DNA from: Burkholderiales bacterium
GTDB taxonomy: Bacteria > Pseudomonadota > Gammaproteobacteria > Burkholderiales > Burkholderiaceae_C
Assembly (NCBI GenBank): GCA_040004785.1
Contig: JBDUAG010000001.1
Coordinates: 1-37,455 of the forward strand
Reading direction: 5' to 3'
DNA length: 37,455 bases
The stretch's first letter is position 1. Each line of letters starts with the position of its first letter. Of the stretch, positions 13,407 to 31,924 are shown one piece after another. The position numbers and the translations under genes were made by a program. The notes under the pieces are model-generated. The model was not told the DNA's origin. It saw only the letters and a list, made by a program, of their open reading frames with translations, and did no database searches.

Positions 13407-14327
13407 TCATTCCGAGTTCGATCTGGCCACGCGACAGACATCGGCGAAGGCGCGTGCATAGAGGCCCAGTTCGACGTCTCGCTTCCAGGCGATGCCGATG
13501 TCCATGCTGGGCACGACATCGTCGATCAGAGTGATGGCCTCCAGACGTGTGTTATCGAGCGACCAGGGCCGGTAAACCATGTCGGAGAGGATCGTGACGC
13601 CGACGCCGACCGCGACGAGGTTGCGCGTCGCCTCCATGGACGTTGTGTGGAAGATGACGTTCGGCTGCATGCCGGCTGCATTCCAATAGCGTCTGGTCGT
13701 CTGCTCGGCGTCGTCGATGGTCAGGAGGATGTAGGGTTCGGGCTGTACTTCCTTGAGCGTCACCCGCTTCCTCTTCAGCAGTGGATGGTTCGCGGGGACC
13801 CAGAGGCGCCGCTTCGAACGCGTCAGAACGTCGGAGTCGATCTCGTCGAGATGCTCTAGCGGAGACGTCAGACACAACGCAAGCTCGATCTCACCGCTGA
13901 GGAGGCACCGCTCGATTTCGGCCCGCGCAAGTTCGACCAACTGCACTCGGATGCCTGGGAACTGCCGATTGAAACGCGCGAGCAGTGGCGGGAGGTAGTA
14001 CCCGGCAACCGTGTGATTGCAGGCGAGCTTGAGCACGCCCGTCATATCGTGCCGAACGCGTTGCGGGGCTTGCATGGCTTCGGCGGCCGCGGCGAGCACG
14101 CTGCGCGCATGCAGCAGGAAGACCGTGCCTTCGGAGCTCAGTGTGACGCCTTTGGCGTGGCGCTGGAAAAGCTTGACACCCATCTCCGCCTCCAAGGCCT
14201 TGATGGCTTCGGTGACGACGGGTTGCGACGTGAACAGCACCGCCGCGGCCTTGGAGATTTGTCCCGTTTCGGCAGTGGCCACGAAGATGCGAAAATGCCG
14301 CAGCGACGCTCTCACGGGGGTTGCCAT
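13407..14327 (-). CDS. LysR-family transcriptional regulator
   Basis: HTH SLRHFRIFVATAETGQISKAAAVLFTSQPVVTEAIKALE..LFQRHAKGVTLS; about 306 aa with substrate-binding domain. Confidence 0.93.
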   Translation of the reverse strand: MATPVRASLRHFRIFVATAETGQISKAAAVLFTSQPVVTEAIKALEAEMGVKLFQRHAKGVTLSSEGTVFLLHARSVLAAAAEAMQAPQRVRHDMTGVLKLACNHTVAGYYLPPLLARFNRQFPGIRVQLVELARAEIERCLLSGEIELALCLTSPLEHLDEIDSDVLTRSKRRLWVPANHPLLKRKRVTLKEVQPEPYILLTIDDAEQTTRRYWNAAGMQPNVIFHTTSMEATRNLVAVGVGVTILSDMVYRPWSLDNTRLEAITLIDDVVPSMDIGIAWKRDVELGLYARAFADVCRVARSNSE

Positions 14328-14754
14328 CGGGTGGAACAAGAGAAGTTCATGCTGACGTCTCGCTAAAGGTCGACGAGTGGAGCACCAAATTACGCAAACG
14401 TCATGCCATGCAGCCTCGCCATTGCATCACAGGTCGGGACGCTGGGCAGTCCGGACCGGCAAGCTGTCGCGAGGCTATTCTCACCGCGCGCCGGTGGCCG
14501 CGGCAAAACACCCGTCATGCGCGCGATCGCCCCCCTGTGCGCCTCGCTCGCGGCGCGATGATTTGAAGCAGACAGGCCGAGCTTGCGCAGCAGCCCGTCG
14601 TGCAACCCGTATACCAAGCCATGCACAGACAATGGCTGTCTCCGGCCCGATGCGTCCCGGACGATATGCGTGCGGCATACATTGACAAACTGCTCGGCCA
14701 CATTCATTCCGCAAAGCCCGATGGACGATCGTGCGCCGGGAGGTTCTCGAGGAC

Positions 14755-15005
14755 TACTTGATACCTCGCCTGCACCTCTTGAACGTGCCGCAGCCACGTG
14801 TCCACGAGCCCCGAGCGAGCGCCGTCCGACGCTGCATCGATGACAGAACATCCGTAATGGCCGACGACCATCACGTCCCGTCACCGGAGCACTCGACGGC
14901 GAATTGCAGCGCAAAATGGCAGTTCAGATCGCTGCTGTGAACGATGTTGGCAACATCGCGATGCATAAGCACCTCTCCGGGCGCAAGGTCCAGTATCTCG
15001 TGCGA
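14755..15005 (-). pseudogene. Beta-class carbonic anhydrase (can-like) remnant
   Basis: Manual translation EILDLAPGEVLMHRDVANIVHSSDLNCHFALQFAVE, frameshift, then DVMVVGHYGC..GARSGLVDTWLRHVQEV; matches the GEVFVHRNVAN / GHYGC / DNWLRH pattern. N-terminus missing. Confidence 0.75.
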
Positions 15006-15035
15006 GCAGACTCTCGACGTTGTGGCACACCGCCA

Positions 15036-16505
15036 TCAGCCATCCACTCCAGCGAGGCAAACGTACTTGAGCTCCAGGTAGTCTTCGAGGCCATGCCGAG
15101 AACCCTCGCGGCCGAGCCCCGATTGCTTGATACCTCCAAAGGGCGCCTCGACCGTGGAGATCAGGCCCGTGTTGACGCCCACCATGCCGCACTCGAGCGA
15201 CCCGGCCACCCTGAAGATCCTGCCCATGTCGCGCGAGTGGAAGTAGCCGGCGAGGCCGAACTCCGTGCAATTGGCCACCTCGACCACCTCGTGTTCCGTG
15301 TCGAACACGAACAACGGGGCGAGCGGTCCGAAGCTCTCCTCGCGTGCCACGCGCATGGCCGCCGTTGCTCCGCCGATCACGGTCGGCTCGAAGAACGTGC
15401 CCTCAAGCGCATGACGACCGCCACCGGCCAGCAGATGCGCGCCATGGGCAATTGCATCGGCAATGTGGGCCTCGACCCTCGCCACCGCGTTCAGGTCAAT
15501 CAGCGGTCCTTGCGTGACGCCGATCTCCGTGCCAGGCCTTACCTTAAGCTCGCGGACACGGTCGACCAACTTTGCGGCAAAGGCATCGTAGACGCCTCGC
15601 TGCACATACAGTCGGTTGGCGCAGACGCAAGTCTGTCCGGTGTTGCGGTACTTCGAGACCATGGCGCCTTCGACTGCCGCGTCCAGATCAGCGTCGTCGA
15701 AGACGATGAAGGGCGCGTTGCCACCGAGTTCGAGCGACAGCTTCTTGACGGTATCAGCGCACTGCCGCATGAGTATCCGGCCGACTTCTGTCGAGCCTGT
15801 GAAGCTCAACTTGCGCACGACGGGATTGGAGGTCAGTTCCGCCCCGAGGGACTGAGCATCGCCGGTCAGTACCGACAAGAGACCATCGGGCAGCCCTGCG
15901 CGCTGAGCCAGCAATGCAAACGCGAGGGCCGACAGCGGTGTCTCCAGGGCCGGCTTGACCACAATGCGCAGCCGGAAGCCAGGGCCGGCCCCACCTTGCG
16001 TGTCAGCATCGCCATAGGGAAATTCCAGGGCGTGATCGCAGCGCACACGCCGACAGGTTCCTTCAGCACAAGAATGCGTCGATCGGCCTGCGGGGCCGGC
16101 ACAGTTTCGCCGTAGGCCCGACGCGCCTCCTCTGCGAACCAATCGATGAACGAAGCGGCGTAGGTGATCTCGCCCGCGGCTTCCGCCAGCGGTTTGCCCT
16201 GTTCCAGGGTCATGACGAGCGCGAGATCTTCCCCGTGCTCGATCATCATGTCCGCCAGACGGTGCAGCACGGCTGCCCGCGCCTTGGAGGGCGTGCGCCG
16301 CCAGGCGGGTTGCGCGATCTGCGCGGGCCTCGACGGCACGGCGCGTCTCGGCCGCTCCCATCATAGGCACGGTGCACAGGGTGACGCCGCTGGCCGGGTC
16401 TGTCACCGGCACCGACTCGCGGTTGTCGGCGTCGGCCCAGGCGCCGGCGAGGAAGGCCTGTTCGCGCAGCAGGCTCGGATCTTTGAGGTTGGTAATCGTG
16501 AGCAT
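15036..16505 (-). pseudogene. gabD: NAD(P)-dependent succinate-semialdehyde dehydrogenase (GabD-like) with two compensating frameshifts
   Basis: LKDPSLLREQAF N-terminus, ITPWNFP, FTGSTEVG, LELGGNAP, GQTCVC, EESFGP. The segment about 15965-16325 reads correctly only in ORF 15866..16339. Could be an intact gene with sequence errors. Confidence 0.8.
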
Positions 16506-16528
16506 CTGTATGGAGGAACGTGCAGGCA

Positions 16529-17566
16529 TCAGGCCTGCGTGCTCAGACGGTGCCGTATCGAGTCGGCGACGACCGCGACGATCAGCAAGGTGCCCAGCAC
16601 CAGCATCTGCATGTATGAGCCAATGTTGGCAAGGTTCATTCCGTTCTGCACCAGACCAATGAAGATCGCGCCCATCACAACGATCTCGACTCTGCCGATC
16701 CCGCCGCGGAGGCTGACGCCAGCGATCACGCAAGCGGCGATCGACTCGAGTGCCACAGTGCCGCCCAGGTTGGCCTCGCCGGATTCGACTCGCGCCGTGA
16801 GCAGCAGGCCTGCGATTGAGGCAAGCAGCGCGCAGCCCAGATAGGCCAGCAACAGCGCGCGCCGCGTGTCGATTCCCGAAAGCGCCGCGGCCTTGGCGTT
16901 GCCACCCACCGCGAGCAAATAGTTCCCTCCGGCAGTGCGTGACATGACAACGAACATGAGCAGGGCAACCGCTGCGGCAATAAGTACCGGTATGGGAGCT
17001 CCCAACACGGTGCCGAAGCCGAGCGTGTCAGAGAAGGCTTCGGGCAATCCGCCGATCGGCACGCCGCCTGTGAGGAACAGCGCCAAGCCGAACCCGATCG
17101 ACTGCACTCCGAGCGTCATGATGAACGGCGAAACGCCGATGTAGGCGATGCCCAACCCGTTAACCAACCCGACGAGCAGCGCGCTGCCGAGGCCTGCCAG
17201 GCACCCGACGGTGACGGCCACCAGCGGCTGCACCTCAGGTCCGAACAGGGTCATGGTCACCGCGCTCGTCACCGACGTCAGCGCGATGACGGTACCGACC
17301 GACAAGTCGAAGCCACCGGTCACCAACGCGAGCATCTGGCCGAGCGAGACCAGCACCAGGTAGACCGACTGGCGCAGCAGGTTCACCAGATTCTGCACCG
17401 TCAGGAATTGGTCCGAAAGCAGTGCGAACACGACGATGGAGACGACCATCAGAGGAGGCAACACACCCACTCGCAGGAACATCCGCAGCGCGACGCGGCC
17501 CAGCCGCTGGCTGAAGCTGGAGGGGGACGTCGCCACGACGTCGTGCGGGATCAGCGAGGTGGTCAT
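16529..17566 (-). CDS. ABC transporter permease (RbsC/CUT2 family)
   Basis: GQMLALVTGGFDLSVG, PFIMTLG, AVGGNAKAAALSGID, LESIAACVIAGVSLRGGIG motifs; multiple TM segments. Confidence 0.92.
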   Translation of the reverse strand: MTTSLIPHDVVATSPSSFSQRLGRVALRMFLRVGVLPPLMVVSIVVFALLSDQFLTVQNLVNLLRQSVYLVLVSLGQMLALVTGGFDLSVGTVIALTSVTSAVTMTLFGPEVQPLVAVTVGCLAGLGSALLVGLVNGLGIAYIGVSPFIMTLGVQSIGFGLALFLTGGVPIGGLPEAFSDTLGFGTVLGAPIPVLIAAAVALLMFVVMSRTAGGNYLLAVGGNAKAAALSGIDTRRALLLAYLGCALLASIAGLLLTARVESGEANLGGTVALESIAACVIAGVSLRGGIGRVEIVVMGAIFIGLVQNGMNLANIGSYMQMLVLGTLLIVAVVADSIRHRLSTQA

Positions 17567-17576
17567 ATGCGCTCCA

Positions 17577-19103
17577 TCAAGCAGCTTCGCGCACGGGCTC
17601 GGCCGGTCCATCGAAAAAGAGTCCGAGCACTGCACTTTCAGTCAACTCGGGGCGGTTCAATTCGCCGACGACCCGGCCATTGCGCAGCACGTAGGCACGA
17701 TGAGCCAAGTGCAGGATCTCGGGAAGGTCCGACGAGATGATCACGACCGCCGCGTTCGCCTCGGTCAACTGCTTGATCAACATGTACAGCGCGCTCCGAG
17801 TGCCCACATCGACACCGACGGTGGGCTCGTCGAAGATGTACAGGTCCGCATGCATGGCCAGACCTTTGCCGAACAAGACCTTCTGCTGATTGCCGCCCGA
17901 CAGCAGCCCGACGGCCCGCCCGAGGTTGAGCGGTGCAAGTTCGACGCGCTCGGCCACACTGCTCGCCAGCGTGCGTTCGCGCCCGCGCTGGATCAGGCCG
18001 CCGGCACCCTGCAGTCCGCGCCGCAACATCGACAACGTGATGTTGCGCGCGCAGCTGAACCCCAGCATCAGTCCTTCGTTCCGGCGGTCGGGTGGCATGT
18101 AGAACATGCCGCGGGCGAGCAGTTCACCCGGCTTTCGCCGGGTCACGTCCTCGCCCTTGAAGAGGACCCGCCCGAGGACGACAGGCTCGATGCCAAAGGC
18201 CGCTCGCATCAATTCGCTCTTGCCGTGGCCGACCAGACCGGCCAGGCCGAGTACCTCGCTGCGGCGCACCCGGATCGACGCATCGCGCACGCCGCCGCGT
18301 GTACTCACGCCGTGCAGTTCGAGCAGGTTCTCCCCCGGCCGGGACGCGATCGTCGGATAGATCTGCGCAATCGAGCGCCCGGTCATCAGTTCCACCAGCG
18401 CGGCATCGTCCGCGCGATCAGCGCTGACCGTCGCAATGTGGCAGCCGTCACGTAGAACCGTGATTCGATCCGCAATGCGGCGAATCTCCTGCATGCGATG
18501 CGAGATGTAGATGATGCCCACCCCGGTCGCGCGCAACCGTTCGACCATCGCGAACAAGTGGTTCGTTTCCTGGTCGGTGAGCGAGGCAGTCGGTTCGTCG
18601 AGGATCAAGACCGCGAGGCGCGACCGCTGGCTCTTGGCGATCTCGACCATCTGCTGTTCGGCCCGGCTCAGGCTTCCGACGATGCGGTCGACGTCGATGT
18701 GGAAATCCAGGCGGCGAAGCAATTCCAGCGCCCGTGCCCGGATCTCGGCACGCCGCAATAGGCCAAAGCGCTTTGGTTCGTCGCCGAGGAGCAGATTCTC
18801 CGCGACGCTCAGCGTGGGCACGAGCGAGAATTCTTGGAACACCGCACTGATGCCGAGCGCGCGCGCTTCCCGCACCGAGCGCAGCTCGACCGCTCGTCCC
18901 TCGAACTCGATGTGTCCGCTGCTGGGCTCGCTCGCGCCTGCCAGCAGCGAGATGAGCGTCGACTTGCCGGCGCCGTTTTCGCCGAAGAGCACGTGGACCT
19001 CGCCGTGATTCAGGTCGAAGCCCACGTTGTCGAGCGCACGCACCCCTGGATAGTGCTTGCACAGGCGGACGGTGCGCAGCAGCGGGATCGCGGTCGCGGC
19101 CAT
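17577..19103 (-). CDS. ABC transporter ATP-binding protein (RbsA-like, two ATPase domains)
   Basis: GENGAGKST, LILDEPT, YISHR, LSGGNQQKV, DEPTVGVDVG. Confidence 0.93.
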   Translation of the reverse strand: MAATAIPLLRTVRLCKHYPGVRALDNVGFDLNHGEVHVLFGENGAGKSTLISLLAGASEPSSGHIEFEGRAVELRSVREARALGISAVFQEFSLVPTLSVAENLLLGDEPKRFGLLRRAEIRARALELLRRLDFHIDVDRIVGSLSRAEQQMVEIAKSQRSRLAVLILDEPTASLTDQETNHLFAMVERLRATGVGIIYISHRMQEIRRIADRITVLRDGCHIATVSADRADDAALVELMTGRSIAQIYPTIASRPGENLLELHGVSTRGGVRDASIRVRRSEVLGLAGLVGHGKSELMRAAFGIEPVVLGRVLFKGEDVTRRKPGELLARGMFYMPPDRRNEGLMLGFSCARNITLSMLRRGLQGAGGLIQRGRERTLASSVAERVELAPLNLGRAVGLLSGGNQQKVLFGKGLAMHADLYIFDEPTVGVDVGTRSALYMLIKQLTEANAAVVIISSDLPEILHLAHRAYVLRNGRVVGELNRPELTESAVLGLFFDGPAEPVREAA

Positions 19104-19121: not shown

Positions 19122-20192
19122 TTACTTGACTTCGAACAAGGGCTTGAAGCCAGGGGGCGGCAGGATGTCGCCGAGCTTGAGGCTCTTGATGTTGCTGCTG
19201 TCCACCACGAATATCTTCGGCCCGACGTGCTTGGTCAGCTCCTTACCCTCGAGGGCGCGAACCGCCTGATCGATGGCGATACGGCCCTGGATCACCATCG
19301 AATCTGCAGGCGATGCCAGGATGCGCCCCTTCTGAATTCCTTCGTAGACGCCGGGTGCCATGTAGAACGACAACAGCTTGACCTTGTCCTGCAGGTTTCG
19401 CGAGCGTACGAGGCCGACGGCAGCCTCGGCGGTGACTGCGGTTCCGGCGATGTAGGCGACGTCAGGATTGGCCTGGAGTGCATCTTCGATGAGCTTGGAC
19501 TGGGCTTCCTTGCCGGTGTCGCCGTACTTCGGATCAAGCGCATCGACCGCGCTTCCCTTCACCGCTTCCATGAAGCCCTTGTTCGCAGCCTCGACCCAGC
19601 CCGCGCCGGCCGGGCCGGGGAACCAGGCGACCTTGACCTTCGGGCTGCCGGCGGGATGCTTCTTGGCCAGGAAACTGCCTGTCGACTGACCCATGGTGTA
19701 AAACGAAACGAGGGACTTGGCAGTGATCTCGGGCGAGCTGATGCCGTTCACGAGGTCGATGACCGGCACCTTCTTTGCGGCGAGGGTCTTGATCAGGCTG
19801 TTCAGGCCATCGGCCGAGATCGCGCCGATGACCACGGCGTTGGCACCGCGGGCCACACAGTCTTCGATCTGCGAAATCTGCTTGTTCAGGTTGGTATAGC
19901 CGCCGGCTTCGACGAGCTGCAGCTTCACGTCCAGACGTTTGGCTTCTTCCACGACGCCGTAGTCCACGCCGAGCCAGTAAGCGTCCTTCATGTGGGGAAA
20001 CGAAACGCAGATCTGCCACTTCTTCGCGGCCTTTGCGAGCGGCGTGTACTCGATGTCCGTCCTCTTGCCATCTGCTGAGAACGGGGGATCGGTGGCTTCG
20101 GCCTTGTATGGAAACCAATCGGCACGCGCCATGGCGGGCGCGAGGACCATGAGTGCGGAAATCAGGGCGAGCGAAATCAAACGGTTGGTCAT
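19122..20192 (-). CDS. Periplasmic binding protein, TorT-like
   Basis: Signal peptide from ATG 20192 (GGAGG upstream); KWQICVSFPHMKDAYWLGVDYGVVEEAKRL..EAGGYTNL and AWFPGPAGAGW typical of the TorT subfamily of type I binding proteins. Confidence 0.8.
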   Translation of the reverse strand: MTNRLISLALISALMVLAPAMARADWFPYKAEATDPPFSADGKRTDIEYTPLAKAAKKWQICVSFPHMKDAYWLGVDYGVVEEAKRLDVKLQLVEAGGYTNLNKQISQIEDCVARGANAVVIGAISADGLNSLIKTLAAKKVPVIDLVNGISSPEITAKSLVSFYTMGQSTGSFLAKKHPAGSPKVKVAWFPGPAGAGWVEAANKGFMEAVKGSAVDALDPKYGDTGKEAQSKLIEDALQANPDVAYIAGTAVTAEAAVGLVRSRNLQDKVKLLSFYMAPGVYEGIQKGRILASPADSMVIQGRIAIDQAVRALEGKELTKHVGPKIFVVDSSNIKSLKLGDILPPPGFKPLFEVK

Positions 20193-20223: not shown

Positions 20224-21198
20224 TCAGTCGGCGAGCTGTTCCCGCAGGCGAGCCAGGCGTTTTCGCGCCTCGGCCCGTGCCGCGAGCGCACCGGGCATGT
20301 CGGTTCGGACGAACCGAGCCTGGTGATTCGGTTGCAGCTGGGCGATGCGATCCATGTCGGCGCTGATGACCGTTCCGATCATCGCGTAGCCTCCGCCAGA
20401 CACGGCGTCCCGGTGCAGGATGATCGGCTCCAAGCCGGCGGGCACCTGGATGGAACCGTAGGGATACCCGGCGTCGACGATGTTCGACGGGTCCGACCCG
20501 GCACCGAAGGGCGGCGTGCGATCCAGGAACTTCAGCGGCCTGCCCCCCTTGAAACGGTAACCGATGCGATCAGCCTCCGCGCCGACCGACCAGCGGTCTG
20601 CATAGAAGGTCTCGACTGCCTCGGCGCTCAGCCGGTGGTCATAGAGTCCCGGCAATACCCTCAGCTCTTGCACTTTCGGGCAACTGACGGCCAAGTCCGC
20701 GGCGACACGGCGACCTACCCGCGCGCGCGGTGTCGAGCTGCCGACGGGCAACAGATCACCCGCGGCGAGCTTGCGACCCTGAAAGCCTCCGAAGGCCCCG
20801 AGGCCGTAGGTCGATCGGCTGCCCAACACCGCTGGCACGTCGATGCCACCGGCAATCGCGATGTAGAGACGGGCTCCGGTTCGCATGAAATCGAACCGCA
20901 GCTTGTCGCCGGCCCTGACGCCGAAGGACTCGTCTCTTGGCACCGCTGCGTCATTGAGCTTGGGCGTCGTTTCGGCGCCCGCGATCGCGACGATGCCGTC
21001 GGCAGTGAACTCGATTTCCGGGGCCAGCAGCGTGCACTCGAGGGCGGCGGCCCCTTCGTCGTTGCCGACCAGGAGGTTCGCAAGCCGGAGCGCGTATTGA
21101 TCCAGCGCCCCTGATTGCGGGATGCCGACGTGATAGTAGCCCGGGCGTCCGAGATCCTGGACCGTGGTCGACAGGCCCGGCTTGATCAGCTTAAGCAT
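20224..21198 (-). CDS. PxpC/KipA-like carboxyltransferase-fold subunit (AHS2 domain)
   Basis: PGLSTTVQDLGRPG, GALD..ANLLVGN, LGSRST, DRIGYR, GSIQVP..PIIL..GGY. Confidence 0.88.
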   Translation of the reverse strand: MLKLIKPGLSTTVQDLGRPGYYHVGIPQSGALDQYALRLANLLVGNDEGAAALECTLLAPEIEFTADGIVAIAGAETTPKLNDAAVPRDESFGVRAGDKLRFDFMRTGARLYIAIAGGIDVPAVLGSRSTYGLGAFGGFQGRKLAAGDLLPVGSSTPRARVGRRVAADLAVSCPKVQELRVLPGLYDHRLSAEAVETFYADRWSVGAEADRIGYRFKGGRPLKFLDRTPPFGAGSDPSNIVDAGYPYGSIQVPAGLEPIILHRDAVSGGGYAMIGTVISADMDRIAQLQPNHQARFVRTDMPGALAARAEARKRLARLREQLAD

Positions 21199-22066
21199 TG
21201 AGGGACTCCATCAGCCGCTGGTTGCAGGTGGCGGGATCGGCTTGAAAATCTTCGAGCGAGAACCTCACCGGCTTGATGCGAAGTTCGAAAGTGCCGGCCT
21301 CAACAGCAGCGACGTCCCGGTCGTATTCCTCGCGCGTGATCGGTTTCCACTTCACGATGTCGCCGGGCTTGAAGAAGCACATGAACTCCTTCAGGTAGGG
21401 CTCACGCTGAGCTGGATCGAAGATCGGCGCCGGCGTGACGCCGAACATCTGGTATCCCCCCGCACCGCGAACCGAGTAGATGCATCCGAAGCAGCCGCCC
21501 TGACCGACGGTGAGCTTGGGCGTGTCGGTGCGCGGCCGGACGTACTTGGGCACCTGCAATTGCTTCGACCGCTCGACCATTTGATAAAGGAAGGGAAGTC
21601 CCGCGACGAATCCCACCATCGAGACGAACCACGGCGCGCCGCTGTGGGCCGCGATGAACTCGTCGACCGACGCGCAGTCATTGACACGCGCGGCGTATTC
21701 GAGATCCGTGCTCAGCGGATCCTGGTGACGTTCGCGGAAACGCATGAGGGTCTCGTGCGTCCATGGGTCGTTGTAGAGCACCGGAATCTCGACGATGCGT
21801 GTGTCGAGCACCATCGGGGCCTGTTCTACGCGCTCCTCGATCGTCTTCATCAGTTTCAGCAGTTTCTCCGCACTGATCACGTCCGGATCGAATCGAATCA
21901 GGTACGACGCGTTTGCCGGGCAGATCTCGGTCACCCCAGGAACCTGCGCATTGCGCAGCTCGGCACACGCGGACATGCCGCGAAAGAATGCCTCCAGGGA
22001 CATCTCCTCCGAGACTTCAACGAAGAGGTGCTCATCGCCACCGAATGTATAGCGGGCCTTGCTCAT
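21191..22066 (-). CDS. PxpB/KipI-like subunit (AHS1 domain)
   Basis: YTFGGDEHLFVE, EIPVLY, MVGFVAGLPFL, PRTDTP, GAGGYQMFG; overlaps neighbouring genes. Confidence 0.85.
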   Translation of the reverse strand: MSKARYTFGGDEHLFVEVSEEMSLEAFFRGMSACAELRNAQVPGVTEICPANASYLIRFDPDVISAEKLLKLMKTIEERVEQAPMVLDTRIVEIPVLYNDPWTHETLMRFRERHQDPLSTDLEYAARVNDCASVDEFIAAHSGAPWFVSMVGFVAGLPFLYQMVERSKQLQVPKYVRPRTDTPKLTVGQGGCFGCIYSVRGAGGYQMFGVTPAPIFDPAQREPYLKEFMCFFKPGDIVKWKPITREEYDRDVAAVEAGTFELRIKPVRFSLEDFQADPATCNQRLMESLNA

Positions 22067-23471: not shown

Positions 23472-23717
23472 TCAGGCAACGTCGATATCGGCCAGCGGCA
23501 TCCCGGGATCGATGGGGGAGTCGTTGTCGACGTGGAACTTGACCAAGGTCCCTGTCACTTCTGCCGTGACTTCGGAGAACTGTTTCATGACCTCGATGAG
23601 GCCGATCACATCGCCCGGCTGGACCGCGTCGCCTTCCTTCTTGTAAGGTGGCTGGTCGGGCGCAGAACGCAGATAGAACGTGCCCGGTAGCGGACTGAGA
23701 ACAGAATGGATCGGCAT
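23472..23717 (-). CDS. Stand-alone biotin carboxyl carrier protein (81 aa)
   Basis: ATG 23717 with AGAGG upstream; SPLPGTFY..GDAVQPGDVIGLIEVMKQF with the biotinylation MK motif. Confidence 0.88.
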   Translation of the reverse strand: MPIHSVLSPLPGTFYLRSAPDQPPYKKEGDAVQPGDVIGLIEVMKQFSEVTAEVTGTLVKFHVDNDSPIDPGMPLADIDVA

Positions 23718-23766: not shown

Positions 23767-24171
23767 TCAGCGTGGGGCAGCAGCCTGCTCGGCGGGGGAC
23801 GGCTCGACCACATAGAGCTTTGCAGCCAGCTTCCAGACACCCTGGGAGCGCACGAAGTTGAGGTGGTCACGATATACCTTCGAGCCGATGCGAACTCGCA
23901 CCCGCACCAGCGCGATGTCGTTCGACAGTGCGAGGGACGCGATCACCGACTCCTCTCTCGGCTGCCCCAGGCTCTTCGGCGAAGAGCGCGTGGCGAGCAG
24001 CTCGCGATAGGTGGACGCCGAGAGCACCTGCGCGGTGCCATCGGCGACCGTGAAGAGGCTGCACGCCGGGAGAAACAACCGATCGAACTTCTCGAGATCG
24101 CACTCATGGAGCACGTCGAAGTAGCTCTGAATCGCGGCGTCGAGCTCGGGGGTCTGGAAAGTCGTGGTCAT
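23767..24171 (-). CDS. NTF2/SnoaL-like fold protein
   Basis: IQSYFDVLHECDLEKFDRLF..IALVRVRV..YRDHLNF....WKLAAKLY pattern; 134 aa in operon. Confidence 0.75.
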   Translation of the reverse strand: MTTTFQTPELDAAIQSYFDVLHECDLEKFDRLFLPACSLFTVADGTAQVLSASTYRELLATRSSPKSLGQPREESVIASLALSNDIALVRVRVRIGSKVYRDHLNFVRSQGVWKLAAKLYVVEPSPAEQAAAPR

Positions 24172-24198: not shown

Positions 24199-24822
24199 CT
24201 AGTGGTCGGCGAAAGTCGAAGGGTCGGATGGACGGCGCTCGCGTGGACGGCTCGCCACCAGACTGGGACGCAGCGTTTCCCGCTCGAGCCACGTCGCAAG
24301 TTGAGGAGCGTCCTTGCGCCACTCGCCGAGGTGCCGAAAATCGATGTACTCCAGCGCGATCGCAGTTGCCAGCCTGTCCACACGCGCGTCCGGCGTGCAG
24401 ATCTCCTCGCTGAACGATTCGAGCTTGGCAACGACGTTGCGAATGCGGCGGTCGCACTTTTCGATGAACGCCGGGCTGCGCTGCGGCTCCGGGCGAAGCA
24501 GCTCCATCACGCGCCCCACCGAGGCTTCCATCAGTCCCAGGGCAAGCCACCACCGCGTCTGCACGTCCCATCTGTCGTCGACCGGACTCAGGCCGCGGCC
24601 CGGACGCAACGAACAGAAGTACGAGCAAATGACGCGGCTATCGCACAGCATCGTGCCACCGTCGAACAGCAACGTGGGTATCTGCCGCAACGGGTTGATG
24701 GCATCGAGAACCTCGGCCTCGAAGACGTTGATGATCTTGTTGTCAACATCGAGGTTGAGTTCATGCGCTGTTGCCAGCGTCATGCGCCCGAACGGTGTGT
24801 TGGGGCCGTTGAGAAGGATCAT
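24199..24822 (-). CDS. Glutathione S-transferase-like protein
   Basis: TPFGR, NPLRQIPTLLFDGG..LCDSRVICSY (GST N-terminal domain); helical C-terminal domain ending in RPSLVASRP. Confidence 0.8.
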   Translation of the reverse strand: MILLNGPNTPFGRMTLATAHELNLDVDNKIINVFEAEVLDAINPLRQIPTLLFDGGTMLCDSRVICSYFCSLRPGRGLSPVDDRWDVQTRWWLALGLMEASVGRVMELLRPEPQRSPAFIEKCDRRIRNVVAKLESFSEEICTPDARVDRLATAIALEYIDFRHLGEWRKDAPQLATWLERETLRPSLVASRPRERRPSDPSTFADH

Positions 24823-24830: not shown

Positions 24831-25556
24831 CTATGCCAGGTAGGGGGTCAGTTCCTTGTGCATCACCCGCGCCAGCTCGACCGCGCCCGGCGTGTCGGAA
24901 TGGACGCAGATGCAGTCCGCGCGCATCGGAATGTCCTTACCGGTGACAGACGGTGCCTTGCCTTCCTTGATGACTCGAATGCAGCGTCTCGCGGCCTCCT
25001 GCGCGTCGACTTCCGGGTGTTCGCGAGTGATGATCAGCGAGCCGTCGTCGTTGTAGTCGAGATCGGTGTAGTACTCGGCCAGGAACTTCAGACCCCGCTC
25101 CGTGTAGACCTTTTCGTGCTGCGTGTTGGCCATTCCCAGCACCGGAACACCGAAGACCTCGACAGCGTCCGCCACCGCGTGCGCAACGTTCGCATCACGC
25201 GCGGCGGCTCCATAGAGCGCGCCGTGCGGCTTGATGTGGTTCAACGGCATGCCGGCGGCGTCCAGGAAAGCCTTCAACGCGCCGACCTGGTACATGATGC
25301 ACGCGGCGAGTTCGTCCCGCTGCATCTTCATCTCGCGGCGGCCGAAACCCTGCAGATCCGGGAAAGACGGATGGGCACCGACCTTGACCTTGTGCTTCTT
25401 CGCGAGTTCGACAGTGCGCTTCATCACCATCGGATCCGAAGCATGGAAGCCGCAAGCGACGTTGGCCACCGTGATAAACGGCATGATCGCTTCATCGTCG
25501 CCGCACTTGTAGAGGCTGAAGCCTTCGCCCATGTCGCAGTTGATAACGAGACTCAT
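24831..25556 (-). CDS. pxpA: PxpA/LamB/YcsF family protein
   Basis: INCDMGEGF, ANVACGFHASDP, GAHPSFPDLQGFGRR, HIKPHGALY, ICVHSDTPGA. Confidence 0.9.
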   Translation of the reverse strand: MSLVINCDMGEGFSLYKCGDDEAIMPFITVANVACGFHASDPMVMKRTVELAKKHKVKVGAHPSFPDLQGFGRREMKMQRDELAACIMYQVGALKAFLDAAGMPLNHIKPHGALYGAAARDANVAHAVADAVEVFGVPVLGMANTQHEKVYTERGLKFLAEYYTDLDYNDDGSLIITREHPEVDAQEAARRCIRVIKEGKAPSVTGKDIPMRADCICVHSDTPGAVELARVMHKELTPYLA

Positions 25557-25767: not shown

Positions 25768-25809
25768 GCTGGCCATCACACTACGTTGCTGCCGGACCCG
25801 ATTGGAGCC

Positions 25810-25991
25810 TGGAATCTCACTGGGCAGACGGCAGTGACGCCTTCCGGGCTGGCGCGTTCGTTGGCCGCGGTTCCGTAGACACTGAACAGGTCAGAGAACC
25901 CGATGGCGATGCCGAGCGAGGTCGTCTTGGTCAAACTGAGGTACGGGTTGCCGAAGGCGGACAGCACGACGCGGAAGACAGGGTGGCGCAT
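25810..25991 (-). pseudogene. Amino-acid ABC permease (AapQ/HisM-like) C-terminal remnant
   Basis: FRVVLSAFGNPYLSLTKTTSLGIAIGFSDLFSVYGT resembles the YLNLTKNSSLAIAIGYPDL motif. Confidence 0.6.
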
Positions 25992-26446: not shown

Positions 26447-27157
26447 ATGAACAATTCACCCCTCATCGCCCCTCAGCTCATCACCGGCGCCCGAATGCTC
26501 TATCTGTCGTGGGTTCCGGAAGATCCTGCCGCAGTGGCGTTACTGGTCCCCAAAGGCCTGACTCCGGATGCACGCAGCGTCGTCTACATGAACCAGTACA
26601 TCGTCGACCGCGCCGAGCAGACGTCCAATGCTGGCCTGCCAGGGACCTTTGGCGCCTACTCCCTGACTTATCTGGGAGTTGATCTGCAGAACCTCGACGC
26701 CCAACCGGGCACCCCCGGGCGCTGGTGGACTCACTACTTCAACAGCTCGGCAGACATGCTGGCCTACGCGGCGGATCGCGGCGTGCCGGCGTCGTCCGGT
26801 GAGACGACACTGCGTTTGAACGGTGATCAACTTGTCGCCACGAGTTCTGTCGGCGGCAAGCCGATCATCCGCACGACCTGCACCGTCAAGTTCGGCAAGG
26901 GCGCGCACGCGAATGGACAGCTTCGCTACATCACTCGCGTCGGCGGGGCGCTCACGAGTGGCCGCTATCCCTTCGTCATGAAGGCGGCGGAGGAATTCCG
27001 TGTGGACAAGCTGGAGTTCCTGGATGCCTCGAACCCTGTGTCTGCGCTGCGCCCGAAGACGCCGCTCGAGGTCACCTTCGGCTTCTACTCACCCGACATC
27101 ACGTTCTGCTATCCGGGCGGCGAAGGTCCCCTCGATATCGCACCGCACGGCGTTTGA
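26447..27157 (+). CDS. Acetoacetate decarboxylase-like fold protein of unknown function
   Basis: ATG 26447 with GGAG upstream; LYLSW..DPAAVALLVPKGL and FGAYSLTYLGVD beta-rich pattern; first gene of the monooxygenase operon. Confidence 0.6.
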   Translation: MNNSPLIAPQLITGARMLYLSWVPEDPAAVALLVPKGLTPDARSVVYMNQYIVDRAEQTSNAGLPGTFGAYSLTYLGVDLQNLDAQPGTPGRWWTHYFNSSADMLAYAADRGVPASSGETTLRLNGDQLVATSSVGGKPIIRTTCTVKFGKGAHANGQLRYITRVGGALTSGRYPFVMKAAEEFRVDKLEFLDASNPVSALRPKTPLEVTFGFYSPDITFCYPGGEGPLDIAPHGV

Positions 27158-27192: not shown

Positions 27193-28671
27193 ATGCTTGA
27201 CCGTTCCGACTGGTACGACTTGGCCCGGACCACCAACTGGACACCCTCGTACGTGCCCGAAGCCGAGCTCTTCCCCGAGGGTCACACCGGCGCCAGGGGC
27301 ATCCCCGAAAGTGCGTGGAACACCTACGACGAGCCGTACAAGGTCGCCTACCGCGAATACGTCAGCGTCCAGCGCGAAAAGGACTCGGGGGCCTACTCGG
27401 TCAAGGCCGCACTGGAGCGGGCGGACATGTTCAGTTCGGCCGATCCGGGCTGGATCGCAACGCTTAAGGAACACTACGGGGCAGTCTCGGTGGTTGAGTA
27501 CAACGCTGCCCTGCAGAACTCCCGGCTTCTGCGTTTCGGGCGCGCTGGAGGCATGCGAAACATGGCGACTTTCGGCATGCTGGACGAGGTCCGCCACGGG
27601 CAGATCCAGCTGTACTTCGCGCACGAGTACGTCCCCAAGGACCGTCAGTTCGACTGGGCTCATGAGTCGATGCGAACCAACAACTGGGTGTCCCTGGCTG
27701 CCCGCCGCTTCTTCGACGACATGATGATGTCGCGCAACGCCGTCGACACCTCGTTGGCAATGAACTTCTCATTCGAGACCGGCTTCACGAACCTCCAGTT
27801 CATCGGCCTCGCCTCCGATGCAACCCACGCTGGCGACTTCAAGTTTGCGAAGCTGATCCAGAGCATCCAGTCCGACGAAGCCCGTCACGCACAGATCGGC
27901 ACCCCCATCCTGAAGATACTGATCGAGCAAGGGAAGAAGGCCGAAGCGCAGAAGATGATCGACATCTCCTTCTGGCGCTCTTGGAAGCTGTTCGCCATCC
28001 TGACCGGCATCCCGATGGACTACTACCTTCCGCTGGACAAGCGCGAAGGGTCGTTCAAGGAGTTCATGCAGGAGTGGGTCGTCACGCAGTTCACCCGCTC
28101 GCTGGAGGACCTGGGACTGGCCAAGCCCTGGTACTGGGACATCTTCATGCGCGACCTGGACGAGCACCACCACGGCCAGCAGCTCGGCACCTGGTCCTGG
28201 CGCCCGACACTGTGGTGGAACCCCGCAGCCGGCGTGGGTCCGGATGAGCGCGAGTGGCTGGAAGAAAAGTACCCGGGCTGGAACGACACCTTCGGCAAGT
28301 GCTGGGACGTCATCACCGACAACGCGAAGGCCGGACGCTTCGAGAAGACGGTACCAGGCACGCTGCCCGTCATCTGCAACGTATCGCAGAACCCCATCGT
28401 CGGCACGCCGAACCGCACACTGCAGGATCGCCAGCTCGACTACAAGGGCCGCAAGTATCACTTCGGCTCGGAAGTCGATCAGTGGATCTTCGAGCAGGAT
28501 CCCGAGCGCTATGCGCGCCACCAGACGCTCGTCGATCGTTTCCTGGCGGGTCAGATCGATCCGCCCGACCTGGGCGGAGTGCTGAAGTACATGGGCCTGG
28601 GCGTGCTGAGCGACGGCGGTCAGGACGCCCACGACTTCGCGTGGGTCGAGAAGTTCAAGGTTCCCGCCTGA
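27193..28671 (+). CDS. tmoA: Soluble di-iron monooxygenase hydroxylase alpha subunit (TmoA/TouA/IsoA type)
   Basis: RBS AAGGAG; WYDLARTTNWTP, di-iron motifs DEVRH and DEARH, FETGFTN, WLEEKYPGW, C-terminal YHS-like YHFGSEVD. Confidence 0.95.
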   Translation: MLDRSDWYDLARTTNWTPSYVPEAELFPEGHTGARGIPESAWNTYDEPYKVAYREYVSVQREKDSGAYSVKAALERADMFSSADPGWIATLKEHYGAVSVVEYNAALQNSRLLRFGRAGGMRNMATFGMLDEVRHGQIQLYFAHEYVPKDRQFDWAHESMRTNNWVSLAARRFFDDMMMSRNAVDTSLAMNFSFETGFTNLQFIGLASDATHAGDFKFAKLIQSIQSDEARHAQIGTPILKILIEQGKKAEAQKMIDISFWRSWKLFAILTGIPMDYYLPLDKREGSFKEFMQEWVVTQFTRSLEDLGLAKPWYWDIFMRDLDEHHHGQQLGTWSWRPTLWWNPAAGVGPDEREWLEEKYPGWNDTFGKCWDVITDNAKAGRFEKTVPGTLPVICNVSQNPIVGTPNRTLQDRQLDYKGRKYHFGSEVDQWIFEQDPERYARHQTLVDRFLAGQIDPPDLGGVLKYMGLGVLSDGGQDAHDFAWVEKFKVPA

Positions 28672-28742: not shown

Positions 28743-29003
28743 ATGGCATTGTTCCCTCTCGTTTCACACTTTCACGGTGACTTCGTCCTGAAGCTGCTGC
28801 CCGCGGACACGGACAGCACGATGGCCGAAGTAGGCGCCGCAGCTGCGGTCAACGCGGTCGGCATCCACATCGCAGACCGGCCCGGAAAGAAGATCTTGTC
28901 CCGCAAGCAAGGCGCCACCGCCCCTTATCCGTCCGACATGAAACTCAGCGCGACCGGCCTCGAGCCGATGGATTGCGTCGAGTTCTATTTCGAGAAAACC
29001 TGA
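28743..29003 (+). CDS. tmoB: SDIMO hydroxylase gamma subunit (TmoB type)
   Basis: MALFPLVSHFHGDFVLKL..TMAEV..GLEPMDCVE, 86 aa after the alpha subunit. Confidence 0.88.
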   Translation: MALFPLVSHFHGDFVLKLLPADTDSTMAEVGAAAAVNAVGIHIADRPGKKILSRKQGATAPYPSDMKLSATGLEPMDCVEFYFEKT

Positions 29004-29022
29004 GGCCACTTCCGGAGTCCCC

Positions 29023-29328
29023 ATGAAAGAAGCAGCCAACACATCGAAGAATCTGGTCGGTCCCGTGATCCAGGCGGGCGAGTTCGCCGAGGCCATCATC
29101 GAAGCGATCCGTGAGGACAACCCTGGCAAAGAAGTCCACCTTCGCTCGCGAGCCTCCTATGTCCGCATCGAACTCGAAGGCGAATGCAAGCTGCGCCGCG
29201 AGACGGTCCAAGCCAAATTGGGTCGGCCGTTCCAGCTGACCGAGCTCGAAGTCAACATGCCCTCGTTCGTCGGGCAGATCGAGACCGGCGACGAGGAAAT
29301 GCGCTTCTTTTTCGACCGCAGTTTCTGA
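29023..29328 (+). CDS. tmoD: SDIMO effector/coupling protein (TmoD type)
   Basis: NLVGPV..AIIEAIREDNPGKE..YVRI..LGRPFQLTELEVNMPSFVGQI. Confidence 0.92.
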   Translation: MKEAANTSKNLVGPVIQAGEFAEAIIEAIREDNPGKEVHLRSRASYVRIELEGECKLRRETVQAKLGRPFQLTELEVNMPSFVGQIETGDEEMRFFFDRSF

Positions 29329-29376
29329 CGCGAGCTGAACTGCCACTCCCACGAGCAAACATTCACAGAGGTCCGT

Positions 29377-30360
29377 ATGCCCCAACCCACGCTTCCCCCG
29401 ATCAAGACCTGGAGCCATCTGGCCGGTCAACGCCGCAAGCCCAGCGAATACGAGATCGTCTCGACCAATCTGCTCTGGCATACCCGCGACGCAGACCATC
29501 CCTGGGACGTCGAAGGCTTCATGGCGGACTGGTACCGGAAGAACCTGTTCGGTTGTGCATTGAAGCATGCCGACTGGGATCTGTTCCGTGACCCTGACGA
29601 GACGGTCTACCGCACCTACAACATCCAGCAGGACGGGCACGAATCGTATGTCGATGGATTGCTCGACCAGTTTGCGGCCGAAGGGCACGACAAGGGCTTG
29701 TCGTCGCAGTGGGTCGCGACACTGACGAAGCTGTACGCGCCGGCACGTTACCCGCTGCACGCGGTTCAGATGGCCTCGGGCTATCTGGCCAGCATCTCGC
29801 CGGCGAGCACCATCTCGAGCAGCGCGATGTTCCAGGCCGGCGATGCGTTGCGCTGGGTATCCCGGGTCGCCTATCGGACCCGCGAACTCGCGAACGCACA
29901 CCCGGATGCCGGCTTCGGCGTGAACGAAAGGCAGTACTGGGAGAGCCTGCCCGAATGGCAGGGCCTGCGTGAACTCACCGAGCGCATGCTCACGGCCTTC
30001 GAGTGGGGCGAGTGCTTCTTCGCGATGAACGTGATCTACAAGCCGGCGCTCGATGAGGCACTCAACCGACAGCTGGCGGTTTCTGCGCGCCGCAACGGCG
30101 ACAGTCTCCTTGCCTTGCTGGCAGAGGCTCAGTTGCGCGACAGTGCCCGTTCCCAGCGCTGGACGGCGGCGCTCGTGAAGATGATGCTGGAAGTGCCCGG
30201 CAACGCCGACGTGCTCGCACAATGGAACACCAAGTGGGTGCCGCTGGCGGAACGCGCCGTTCGCACTTTTTGCAAGGCCATCCCGGACAATGCTGAGAGC
30301 GGCGACGCGGCGGTTTCAGCGATGCGTGCCTTCAGAGTCAGTCTCGGGCTGTCGGCCTGA
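29377..30360 (+). CDS. tmoE: SDIMO hydroxylase beta subunit (TmoE type)
   Basis: KTWSHLAGQRRKPSEYEIVS, DWDLFRDPD..YRTY, YAPARY..H..QM, WQGLREL.E. Confidence 0.93.
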   Translation: MPQPTLPPIKTWSHLAGQRRKPSEYEIVSTNLLWHTRDADHPWDVEGFMADWYRKNLFGCALKHADWDLFRDPDETVYRTYNIQQDGHESYVDGLLDQFAAEGHDKGLSSQWVATLTKLYAPARYPLHAVQMASGYLASISPASTISSSAMFQAGDALRWVSRVAYRTRELANAHPDAGFGVNERQYWESLPEWQGLRELTERMLTAFEWGECFFAMNVIYKPALDEALNRQLAVSARRNGDSLLALLAEAQLRDSARSQRWTAALVKMMLEVPGNADVLAQWNTKWVPLAERAVRTFCKAIPDNAESGDAAVSAMRAFRVSLGLSA

Positions 30361-30370
30361 GCGGCTCTTC

Positions 30371-31393
30371 ATGGAGAGCTATGAGATCGCCATCGAGGGG
30401 GCGGCAAGCGGGTTCCGGGCATCCGGCCAGGACCCGCTGCTGCGCAGCGCACTACGCGCCGGTATCGGCTTTCCTTACGAGTGCAATGTCGGCTCCTGTG
30501 GTTCATGCAAGTTCGAACTTCTCGACGGCGAACTCGATGTCCCGGCCGAGCTGACCAGCGGAACCAGTGAGCGTGACCGCCAGCGCAGGCGATTCCTGGC
30601 ATGCCAGGTCAAACCGGCAAGCGAGTGCCGCATCAAAGTACGCACGTCGGTTTCCTTCGAACCTGTCAACAGGCCTCGCGCCGTGCGCGCGGAACTTGTG
30701 CGCCGCATCGATCACACCGGTGATCTGAGCGAGTTCGTCTTCCAGACGCTGCAACCGGCCCTGTTCCTCAGCGGCCAGTATGCCCTGCTGTCGCTGCCCG
30801 GTGTGCAAGCATGGCGTGCGTACTCCATGTCCAATCTATCGAACGACGACGGAGAGTGGCGCTTCTTCATCAAGCGCGTCGCTGGTGGCGCCATGACGCA
30901 ACCCCTGTTCGAATCGCCTCGCGCGGGGACTGTGGTCACGATCGACGGGCCGTACGGGATGGCGTTCGCGAGACTCGACGTCGAGCGGGATGCCGTGTGC
31001 ATCGCGGGTGGGTCCGGCTTTTCGCCCATGCTCGGGATTGCGCGCTGCCTCGCCGCCAGCGGCAACCTCAGGCGCCGCAACCTGCATTTCTTCTACGGCT
31101 GCCGCACGCCCGATGACCAGCCCGACGCCTCCCTCGTAGGAAATCTGCGGGAACAGGTCGGGTCACTCTCCCACACTGTCGTCGTCTCCGACACGGCGGC
31201 CGCATCGACCTTCGGGTGGACGGGGCCCACAGGCTTCGTGCACGAGACGGTCGCAAGCCACATCGGCTCCGACGGCGCCGCGCTCGAGTACTACGTCTCC
31301 GGCCCAGCTCCGATGGTCGATGCCGTGGTTCGCATGCTCGTCCTCGACAGGAAAGTTCCTGTCGAGCAAGTCCACTACGACCGCTTCTTCTGA
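30371..31393 (+). CDS. tmoF: SDIMO NADH:ferredoxin reductase (TmoF type)
   Basis: 2Fe-2S CNVGSCGSC..LACQ, FAD motif RAYSMSN, DGPYG, IAGGSGFSPM, C-terminal DRFF. Confidence 0.9.
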   Translation: MESYEIAIEGAASGFRASGQDPLLRSALRAGIGFPYECNVGSCGSCKFELLDGELDVPAELTSGTSERDRQRRRFLACQVKPASECRIKVRTSVSFEPVNRPRAVRAELVRRIDHTGDLSEFVFQTLQPALFLSGQYALLSLPGVQAWRAYSMSNLSNDDGEWRFFIKRVAGGAMTQPLFESPRAGTVVTIDGPYGMAFARLDVERDAVCIAGGSGFSPMLGIARCLAASGNLRRRNLHFFYGCRTPDDQPDASLVGNLREQVGSLSHTVVVSDTAAASTFGWTGPTGFVHETVASHIGSDGAALEYYVSGPAPMVDAVVRMLVLDRKVPVEQVHYDRFF

Positions 31394-31416
31394 GGTTTAC
31401 TACAAGGTTTTCGATC

Positions 31417-31752
31417 ATGGCTTTCAAGCGCGCTTGTTCCCTCGACGATCTCTGGCAAGGAGAGATGCAACCCATCGTCATCGACGGCAAGGACGTCCTG
31501 CTCGTCCACACCGATTCCGGCAAGCTCTGCGCCACCCAGGGGACCTGTCCGCATCAGGAGTTCAGCCTCGGTGACGGCGAGCTCAAGGGCAATGTACTCA
31601 CCTGCTGCAAGCACCTGTGGCAATTCGATGTCACCACCGGCAAGGGCATCAATCCATCGCACGCGGAACTCGCGCTGTTTCCCGTGCGGATTGACGGTGA
31701 CGACGTGATGGTGGACGTAGAGGGCATCGAACCCAAGTTTGCCCACTCATGA
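31417..31752 (+). CDS. tmoC: Rieske-type ferredoxin (TmoC type)
   Basis: MAFKRACSLDDLWQGEM, CPHQ..CCKHLWQFD..TGKGINP. Confidence 0.92.
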   Translation: MAFKRACSLDDLWQGEMQPIVIDGKDVLLVHTDSGKLCATQGTCPHQEFSLGDGELKGNVLTCCKHLWQFDVTTGKGINPSHAELALFPVRIDGDDVMVDVEGIEPKFAHS

Positions 31753-31813
31753 TCGAAGGCCCACAGGGCAGACCCACGACCGTGCATCTCCATTCAACCA
31801 GACAACCGATCAC

Positions 31814-31924
31814 ATGACCGTACACGACGTCGCCCGATTCACGGCGCGTCCGGCGACGCTGGACCCACTTCGGACGTTGCTGACCGGACTCGTCGAGCCC
31901 ATTCGCAGCGACAAGGGGTGTTGA
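31814..31924 (+). pseudogene. ABM/YgiN-like (antibiotic biosynthesis monooxygenase fold) N-terminal fragment
   Basis: MTVHDVARFTARPATLDPLRTLLTGLVEPIRSDKGC* resembles the xxPTRxExGC motif; stops inside an IS-like end. Confidence 0.6.

Follow-up and report, generated by a model that had tools for sequence, protein, structure and literature searches.

Closest described systems and the locus

In Aspergillus, lamA and lamB serve the use of 2-pyrrolidinone. PxpABC open 5-oxoproline (parts of PMC13274462 and PMC8453981), and for butyrolactam Pseudomonas putida depends on PP_2920-2, whose annotation is that of a pxpABC paralogue (part of bioRxiv 10.1101/2021.12.09.472016). Genes named 'allophanate hydrolase' are treated as urea-type carboxyltransferase in a portion of PMC3199775. 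Among di-iron monooxygenases of the soluble kind (SDIMOs), group 1 is delimited by an identity of 35% or more between the alpha subunit and TouA (PMC11825192, Table S1), and its genes run alpha, gamma, ferredoxin, coupling, beta, reductase (PMC11825192, section 3.1). We analysed a 37,455-nucleotide window, meaning the whole of positions 1 to 37,455 of contig JBDUAG010000001.1 from a Burkholderiales bacterium (GCA_040004785.1; genome 68% complete), in which an SDIMO operon and an operon of lamB, biotin and pxp genes lie divergently on facing strands, separated by an 890-bp gap. Comparison across genomes supports the view that the oxygenase belongs with the lamB/biotin/pxp genes in a single conserved system, and we consider it rather likely that the six-part di-iron monooxygenase makes a lactam that is opened by a biotin- and ATP-dependent LamB complex.

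The window was scanned with Pfam and NCBIfam over 42 of its 173 listed open reading frames (ORFs). The gene content and the back-to-back arrangement of the operons given in the original prediction, which had been made from the sequence alone, were confirmed by the family matches, as was its statement that the window lacks catechol dioxygenase, iso-type and 4-aminobutyrate (GABA) transaminase genes, none of which was found among the 42 ORFs scanned. No match to a sigma-70 promoter was found in the gap between the two operons, which holds a 71-codon ORF (25776–25991, reverse strand) without a Pfam match that by eye resembles, we assume, a fragment of an amino-acid ABC permease.

The oxygenase branch and its partner genes

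The alpha subunit was searched against 58 of the 64 parts of GTDB, and 79 loci were kept out of 592 matches. These were divided by identity to the window alpha into 33 at 69–74% (Actinomycetota), a sample of what is hereafter called the branch, and 46 at 59–65% (other toluene monooxygenases, TMOs). The gene for a protein of acetoacetate decarboxylase (ADC) fold is present in 33/33 and lamB in 32/33 branch loci, those for the biotin carboxyl carrier protein (BCCP), pxpB and pxpC in 31/33 each, and that for biotin carboxylase in 30/33, and each of them in 0/46 other TMO loci; the two branch loci without pxpB carry it on other contigs. In 30–32/33 cases the partners share a locus of 21 kb with the oxygenase, for the most part in one operon, and the contrast between the 33 and the 46 loci places the pairing beyond chance. 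Of the co-occurrence with pxp, biotin, TorT and gabD genes that the original prediction had put forward as its own check, that with the pxp (including lamB) and biotin genes was found at 30–32 of the 33 relatives and at none of the 46 other TMO loci.

Two further loci, L188 and L189, hold the full gene set. At L189, in genome G1314, LysR, lamB, ADC, tmoABDEFC, BCCP, biotin carboxylase, pxpB, pxpC, TorT-ABC and tautomerase genes lie on one strand, and at the metagenome locus L082 (alpha 88% identical) the start of lamB diverges from the ADC-fold gene, as in the window. The alphas of the window and G1314 are 88% identical, whereas their LamB proteins are only 37% identical, and in trees their PxpB and LamB fall among different copies of a stand-alone module, lamB-BCCP-biotin carboxylase-pxpB-pxpC. 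Because alphas of this similarity are combined with module copies of different stand-alone groups, the pairing seems to have arisen more than once, which points to a functional link and to interchangeable modules.

Ring-cleavage genes were distributed in the opposite manner. Catechol 2,3-dioxygenase (10/46), meta-cleavage hydrolase (13/46) and a phenol-type sigma-54 regulator (22/46) accompany the ordinary TMOs and are found in 0/33 branch loci, and no catechol 2,3-dioxygenase (TIGR03211) scored over cut-off in the 68% complete genome. The linked ring-cleavage and phenol genes of a toluene/phenol pathway are accordingly missing, and an ordinary toluene/phenol enzyme feeding catechol cleavage, the outcome against which the original prediction had been set, finds no support in these counts.

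The TmoA-type alpha subunit (27193–28671, forward strand) has ToMO 1t0q as its best Protein Data Bank (PDB) match, over its full length (737 bits; E 2e-220), and lies within the 35% limit to TouA. It is followed on the same strand by the gamma subunit TmoB (28743–29003; PF06234), the effector TmoD (29023–29328; PF02406), the beta subunit TmoE (29377–30360; PF02332), the reductase TmoF (30371–31393; PF00111/PF00970/PF00175) and, last in the operon, the Rieske ferredoxin TmoC (31417–31752; PF00355, CxH...CxxH motif), so that the six components of group 1, including Rieske ferredoxin and gamma subunit, are complete. In a 49-row quick tree of alpha subunits, the window, five relatives at 85–89% identity, 17 branch rows and three unlabelled proteins split off with an SH-aLRT of 100, the FastTree support for a narrower 60-row group being only 0.63. 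By its sequence, the alpha falls in a group-1 SDIMO branch that is uncharacterised. One branch member, WP_033292595.1, appears in the group-1 tree of the 2025 review PMC11825192 but not in that review's list of characterised group-1 enzymes. Of the proteobacterial members, those with a name are from Comamonas humi, an Acidovorax metagenome-assembled genome and Rhodopseudomonas sp. P2A-2r. The whole operon is found in strains of Amycolatopsis, Saccharopolyspora, Streptomyces, Nocardioides and Oryzobacter. The alpha search returned no branch member from 300 genomes of the window's family, from plasmids or from viral contigs.

With ToMO (TouABCDEF, 1t0q) and T4MO (TmoABCDEF, 3dhg) the window enzyme shares the six components, T201/N202/Q228 and E104, E134, H137, E197, E231 and H234, which we take to be the di-iron ligands and which the branch also keeps. 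The branch differs from them in its separate position in the tree, in its lack of phenol and meta-cleavage genes, in its constant ADC-fold and lamB/biotin partners, in its pocket signature, and in its gene order, which is ABDE(F)C and not ABCDEF. At ToMO positions 100, 103, 193 and 110, presumably lining the pocket, V100, V103 and N193 are found in 33/33 branch loci together with Q or M at 110, whereas other TMOs have I/L, mostly G/A, T and A/G, respectively, which suggests a tighter, smaller and more polar pocket. The order is ABDEFC in 24/33 branch loci and in the window, and ABDEC in the 9/33 loci that are missing an intact reductase (L001–L004, L005, L008, L009, L018 and L050); the usual group-1 order is thus followed neither by the window nor by any of the 33, while the other 46 loci are ABC-first wherever enough genes are present.

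The ADC-fold protein (26447–27157, forward strand; weak PF06314 match) was recognised from a structure model (pLDDT 94.5) and Foldseek matches to Sbi00515, ADC and MppR (E about 1e-11, TM 0.6–0.7). It shares its fold with the acetoacetate decarboxylase-like superfamily (ADC, MppR, Sbi00515, Swit_4259) but is only 14–18% identical to it and has no conserved lysine, no alignment column with at least 30% Lys being found in 105 ADC-fold homologues; Schiff-base chemistry is unlikely for this reason. A profile of the family matched no PDB sequence. Because the gene is mostly found without an oxygenase, it gives no specific substrate clue, and the role of its product is the least certain of the parts. 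It occurs in 1/401 genomes of the family of L047. The neighbours of stand-alone ADC-fold genes were considered as a substrate clue and set aside, as they were mixed (class III aminotransferase, nitrilase, short-chain dehydrogenase and housekeeping genes) and none was informative. Such genes lie beside a class III aminotransferase (L136:8363–10654), beside a gamma-glutamyl-GABA hydrolase fragment and a dihydroorotase on a Nostoc plasmid (L162:13179–16311), and beside lamB or biotin carboxylase/BCCP/pxpC2 on short contigs with no visible oxygenase (L096:41–4432, L137:174–1561).

On the reverse strand, the LamB/PxpA metal-dependent lactam hydrolase subunit (24831–25556; PF03746, NF003814 over cut-off) is encoded with a stand-alone BCCP (23472–23717; PF00364, PRK07051 over cut-off, EVMK biotin motif), a biotin carboxylase (22063–23460; PF00289/PF02786/PF02785, PRK12833 over cut-off) and two carboxyltransferase (CT) halves, PxpB-like CT_C_D of the long form (21191–22066; PF02682) and PxpC-like CT_A_B (20224–21198; PF02626, TIGR00724 over cut-off, PxpC_5OPro below). 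The presence of PxpA, PxpB and PxpC homologues together is a likeness to the PxpABC 5-oxoprolinase, from which the window proteins differ in their scores, PxpB reaching 78 in TIGR00370 (cut-off 145.55) and PxpC 230 in NF045499 (cut-off 500). LamB/PxpA with CT_C_D and CT_A_B subunits is common to the window, PxpABC and PP_2920-2, the last likened by description and not by sequence; relative to both systems, the window adds a dedicated BCCP and biotin carboxylase, and its PxpB is longer.

Residues 3–273 of PxpB have K. lactis urea carboxylase as their best PDB match, and PxpC aligns to the same structure (3va7) and has the urea-carboxylase loop. As hand-counted from the alignments, the residues K1605, Y1628, D1321 and Y1324 recur at the matching positions, whereas F stands for D1584 and Q for N1330; all six are residues that we take to have roles in urea carboxylase. 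The window thus shares biotin carboxylase, BCCP and urea-type CT domains with that enzyme but splits them into four genes, with no single polypeptide passing TIGR02712, has LamB in the place of allophanate hydrolase, and is linked to an oxygenase. In the cryo-EM part of PMC13012033, PxpB/C homologues bind the biotin of BCCP. We infer that a lactam would be N-carboxylated by way of biotin and then hydrolysed by LamB. A second pxpB/pxpC pair, more urea-carboxylase-like and 25–37% identical to the first, is present in 20–21/33 branch loci (e.g. L072:6346–7317, L020:4403–6441), often beside a PucR-type regulator; this regulator, found in 16/33 branch loci, is given no role in the pathway proposed below.

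Every part of the system belongs to a known family, and the combination has no described function in the open-access literature searched. By family and sequence comparison, it parts from the ordinary route of toluene breakdown as well as from PxpABC in its canonical form, urea carboxylase and acetoacetate decarboxylase. In the same open-access literature, with subscription papers outside the search, nothing was found on the neighbours of the branch, on pyrrole-degradation genes or on DUF2848, and the word 'carboxylase' is absent from the main text of PMC11825192 and PMC12917321.

Proposed pathway and alternative explanations

The strongest substrate clue is the exchange of one helper protein for another. 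A 4-oxalocrotonate (4-OT) family tautomerase is encoded in 24/33 branch loci, with Pro1 and Arg11 in 24/24, and an NTF2-like (Lumazine_bd_2) protein in 7/33 and in the window (23767–24171, reverse strand; PF12893), where it takes the place of the relatives' tautomerase; G1314 has the tautomerase, the two never occur at one locus, and the two branch loci with neither are those whose lower genes lie on other contigs. For comparison, 19 stand-alone loci were picked by PxpB similarity, 14 from genomes in a 401-genome sample of the order and 5 from plasmids. Because these carry neither helper, the oxygenase product probably needs a proton shift, which would suit an unsaturated lactam or amino acid. 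Of the proteins that the original prediction had suggested for shifting a double bond, NTF2 thereby gains in standing, whereas the glutathione S-transferase (GST) is found in 0/33 branch loci and in 7/19 stand-alone loci. No dehydrogenase recurs in the core of the branch loci, and for this reason a single oxygen insertion would have to yield the lactam, which fits an aromatic azole. Pyrrole would pass through pyrrolin-2-one to ammonia and succinate semialdehyde, and no other dedicated gene would be needed. In 12/33 branch loci (Pseudonocardiaceae, Streptomyces; e.g. L053:18886–19275), an SRPBCC (Polyketide_cyc2) gene follows the tautomerase.

A weaker clue is a cluster comprising an HpaB-type flavin monooxygenase, a reductase, a cupin, DUF2848, an amidase/nitrilase-family hydrolase, GntR and a transporter (L007:876–6828), seen also at L008, L035, L053, L065, L067, L070 and L183–L185, in Actinomycetota and Proteobacteria. 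It lies inside 7/33 branch loci and probably just past three more, and is present in 16/33 branch genomes compared with 11/160 sampled Pseudonocardiaceae. Its proteins of 52.7 and 19.0 kDa may be set beside the 54 and 18.7 kDa that we take to be the sizes of pyrrole-2-carboxylate monooxygenase, a comparison by size and not by sequence. Table 1 of PMC6165268 places the latter enzyme in the same flavin group (group D) as the HpaB type, and the cluster is a candidate for pyrrole-2-carboxylate catabolism. Two other candidates were dropped as clues: UbiD, considered as a pyrrole-2-carboxylate decarboxylase, is present in only 2/5 carrier genomes, and a UbiX homologue beside L072 scored best with the BagM/FevK and VdcB models, below both cut-offs.

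The best explanation, which we hold with slightly less than even confidence, is that an N-heteroarene, likeliest pyrrole, is oxygenated to an unsaturated lactam that is opened by the biotin/LamB enzyme; for pyrrole or simple pyrroles as the substrate, our confidence likewise stops just short of the halfway mark. C2 oxygenation of pyrrole would give pyrrolin-2-one, whose isomers the ADC-fold protein may interconvert or pass on. Biotin carboxylase would put CO2 on BCCP, and PxpBC would move it to the lactam nitrogen, activating the amide for ring hydrolysis by LamB, upon which the carbamate would shed CO2. The 4-OT or NTF2 protein would then tautomerise the aminobutenoate to an imine, releasing ammonia and succinate semialdehyde, the latter to be taken by a GabD encoded elsewhere (on contig C384 in the window genome). 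The core of the original prediction, oxygenation of an N-heterocycle followed by ATP-dependent opening of the lactam, is in this respect supported by comparative genomics.

Several points weigh against this explanation. A reductase is missing from 9/33 branch loci and biotin carboxylase from L050; the second, more urea-carboxylase-like pxpB/C pair (20–21/33) has no explanation in it; the ADC-fold gene is mostly found without the oxygenase, tmoA being present at 5/80 metagenome loci, many of them on short contigs; and the local gabD and carbonic anhydrase genes are decaying. The HpaB-type cluster is missing in 17/33 branch genomes and has no match in the window genome, seven of its carriers are Amycolatopsis so closely related that they do not count as independent, and in G545 the oxygenase occurs but the cluster does not. 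The descriptions of PP_2920-2 and PxpABC are of three-gene enzymes for which ATP-dependent phosphorylation, not biotin, is assumed (part of PMC13274462), MSMEG_0435-0436 are without urea carboxylase activity and may be regulatory (part of PMC13012033), and no characterised five-gene biotin-LamB module was found in the open-access literature.

Among the alternatives, the one that survives best, although we consider it unlikely, keeps the architecture and changes the ring, with imidazole, pyrazole, oxazole or thiazole yielding a cyclic amide or urea, and indole or pyridine being less likely still. All the co-occurrence evidence fits it equally, and the urea-carboxylase-like CT, together with the common second pair, would be in keeping with a cyclic urea. 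A scan of 113 accessory ORFs turned up no gene for the products to be expected further down the pathway. Di-iron enzymes tend to N-oxidise pyridines, which counts against that ring. Hydroxylation of indole at C2 is within the reach of group-1 enzymes (PMC11825192, Table S2), while the bulkier pocket residues of the branch would argue against indole here.

It is improbable, to a greater degree, that the substrate of the module is saturated 2-pyrrolidinone, which the oxygenase would free from an N-substituted lactam by N-dealkylation or make by oxidising pyrrolidine twice, and which would then pass through GABA, GabT and GabD. PP_2920-2 act on butyrolactam (same part of the bioRxiv text), group-1 enzymes attack N-nitrosodimethylamine and tetrahydrofuran (PMC11825192, Table S2), the genome has gabT-gabD, and linked and stand-alone modules interleave in trees and look interchangeable. 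This explanation nevertheless has no role for the Pro1 tautomerase or NTF2, which are confined to oxygenase-linked loci, and neither a dehydrogenase nor a formaldehyde-handling gene recurs in the branch loci.

More improbable again is a route without a lactam, in which the oxygenase epoxidises a small alkene or hydroxylates a small arene, leaving isomerisation of the product to the ADC-fold protein and C-carboxylation to the biotin enzyme. ToMO and T4MO are the nearest solved relatives, group 1 includes alkene enzymes, and known ADC-fold members handle ketones; against this, LamB (32/33) would be left without a role, the CT is urea-type rather than acyl-CoA- or pyruvate-type, the ADC-fold protein is without a conserved lysine, and neither nearby ring-cleavage genes nor, in the 68% complete genome, a catechol 2,3-dioxygenase over cut-off was found. 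That the two operons are unrelated passengers of one mobile island is scarcely credible, since the low GC content (63% versus 67%), the lack of a match in 33 congeners and the decayed genes that favour it are set against their union in one operon in most of the 33 actinobacterial loci and in G1314, and against a pairing re-formed with different module copies.

Stand-alone modules, flanking genes and significance

In the stand-alone loci, lamB-BCCP-biotin carboxylase-pxpB-pxpC is accompanied by GST in 7/19 and by TorT in 11/19 (one partial), whereas oxygenase, ADC-fold, NTF2, tautomerase and gabD genes are found in 0/19. The uncharacterised proteobacterial form, LysR-lamB-(GST)-BCCP-biotin carboxylase-pxpB-pxpC-(TorT ABC), has the gene order of the window and a PxpB 64–74% identical to it, and differs in being without the oxygenase, ADC-fold, tautomerase and NTF2 genes that are in the window or linked to its branch. 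The GST-like protein (24199–24822, reverse strand; PF13417) came with this module, as did, by the same comparison, the importer and LysR. The importer consists of a TorT-like solute-binding protein (19122–20192; PRK10936, 436 bits, cut-off 200), whose nearest solved structure is 4yhs (E 3e-169), and a CUT2-type ATPase (17577–19103; PF00005 twice) and permease (16529–17566; PF02653), all on the reverse strand. Its inclusion in the system by the original prediction is not upheld, as GST and TorT importer genes are found in 0/33 actinobacterial branch loci and TorT in 11/19 stand-alone modules. The LysR regulator (13407–14327, reverse strand; PF03466/PF00126), likely that of the oxygenase/lamB system, shares 63% identity with the LysR at the head of G1314's single operon and 44–49% with those of stand-alone modules.

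PxpB at 60–80% identity is held by 68 plasmid records, and bioB lies within 7/33 branch and 3/19 stand-alone loci, in keeping with the use of biotin. At L178 (10521–22402), a stand-alone lamB-biotin module and TorT-ABC are followed by a xanthine-dehydrogenase-family molybdoenzyme, and this molybdenum hydroxylase may be an alternative way to make the lactam. At L164 (11373–15291), hydantoinase/oxoprolinase B and A lie between pxpC and TorT, and ORF pairs of similar size occur in L168 and L170.

The gabD-type succinate-semialdehyde dehydrogenase (15036–16505, reverse strand; best matches PRK11241/TIGR01780, in two frames) is broken near 16326 and again near 15964 by single-base frameshifts that compensate each other, and between them residues from about 55 to 175 (about 120 residues, including the PWNFP segment) are translated in the wrong frame. 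Contigs were compared from four runs of one study, the source sample possibly among them: in run X3 a contig of 988 bases covers both breaks and is identical to the window, a contig of run X1 covers the second break and agrees with it, and one contig of X2 (depth 2.7) has an extra base there. The gene is present in 1/33 branch loci and 0/19 stand-alone modules, no gabD match was found within the 40 kb taken around the G1314 locus, and gabD is not core to the system, to which the original prediction had assigned it. The accompanying argument, that a missing transaminase points to an enamine route, is weak, as a gabT over cut-off adjoins another gabD on C384 of the same genome. The adjacent beta-carbonic anhydrase is a decayed remnant with pieces in different frames (14390–15035, bounds approximate, reverse strand; PF00484, E 2e-4; PRK10437, E 2e-11 over 68 residues, under cut-off). 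On the other side, the 36-codon ORF after the oxygenase operon (31814–31924, forward strand), which had been taken for an ABM stub, is doubtfully ABM-like, its PF03992 match (E 0.16) being below cut-off and not significant.

Because its GC content (63.1%) is below that of the genome (67.4%) and a search of 33 congeners did not find its ADC-fold gene, the region was probably acquired. The lower-GC left flank (9700–13400), with a TPR fragment (10710–12005), pieces that recur on other contigs and an ORF (11747–12562) that is transposon-like by eye and has no family match, is probably the edge of the island. To the right (32185–37075), an AraC regulator is encoded together with two short-chain dehydrogenases and the FAD oxidoreductase PRK06134, at genome-like GC content; these genes are probably a separate unit, no counterpart having been seen near branch loci.

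If the reading of the locus as an N-heteroarene pathway is true, it would supply the genes of a route by which pyrrole, or a related azole, is degraded, and would assign a heteroarene substrate to a group-1 SDIMO branch that is uncharacterised. Possibly, although we hold this more tentatively than the pathway itself, it is the missing aerobic pyrrole pathway, with the first di-iron pyrrole monooxygenase and a new class of biotin enzyme that N-carboxylates lactams. Biotin-dependent lactam hydrolysis would explain the clustering of LamB, 'allophanate hydrolase' and 'acetyl-CoA carboxylase' genes in many genomes, and would give a function to the widespread five-gene LamB-biotin module of Proteobacteria and Actinomycetota. 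As carriers include named strains, the system is directly testable.

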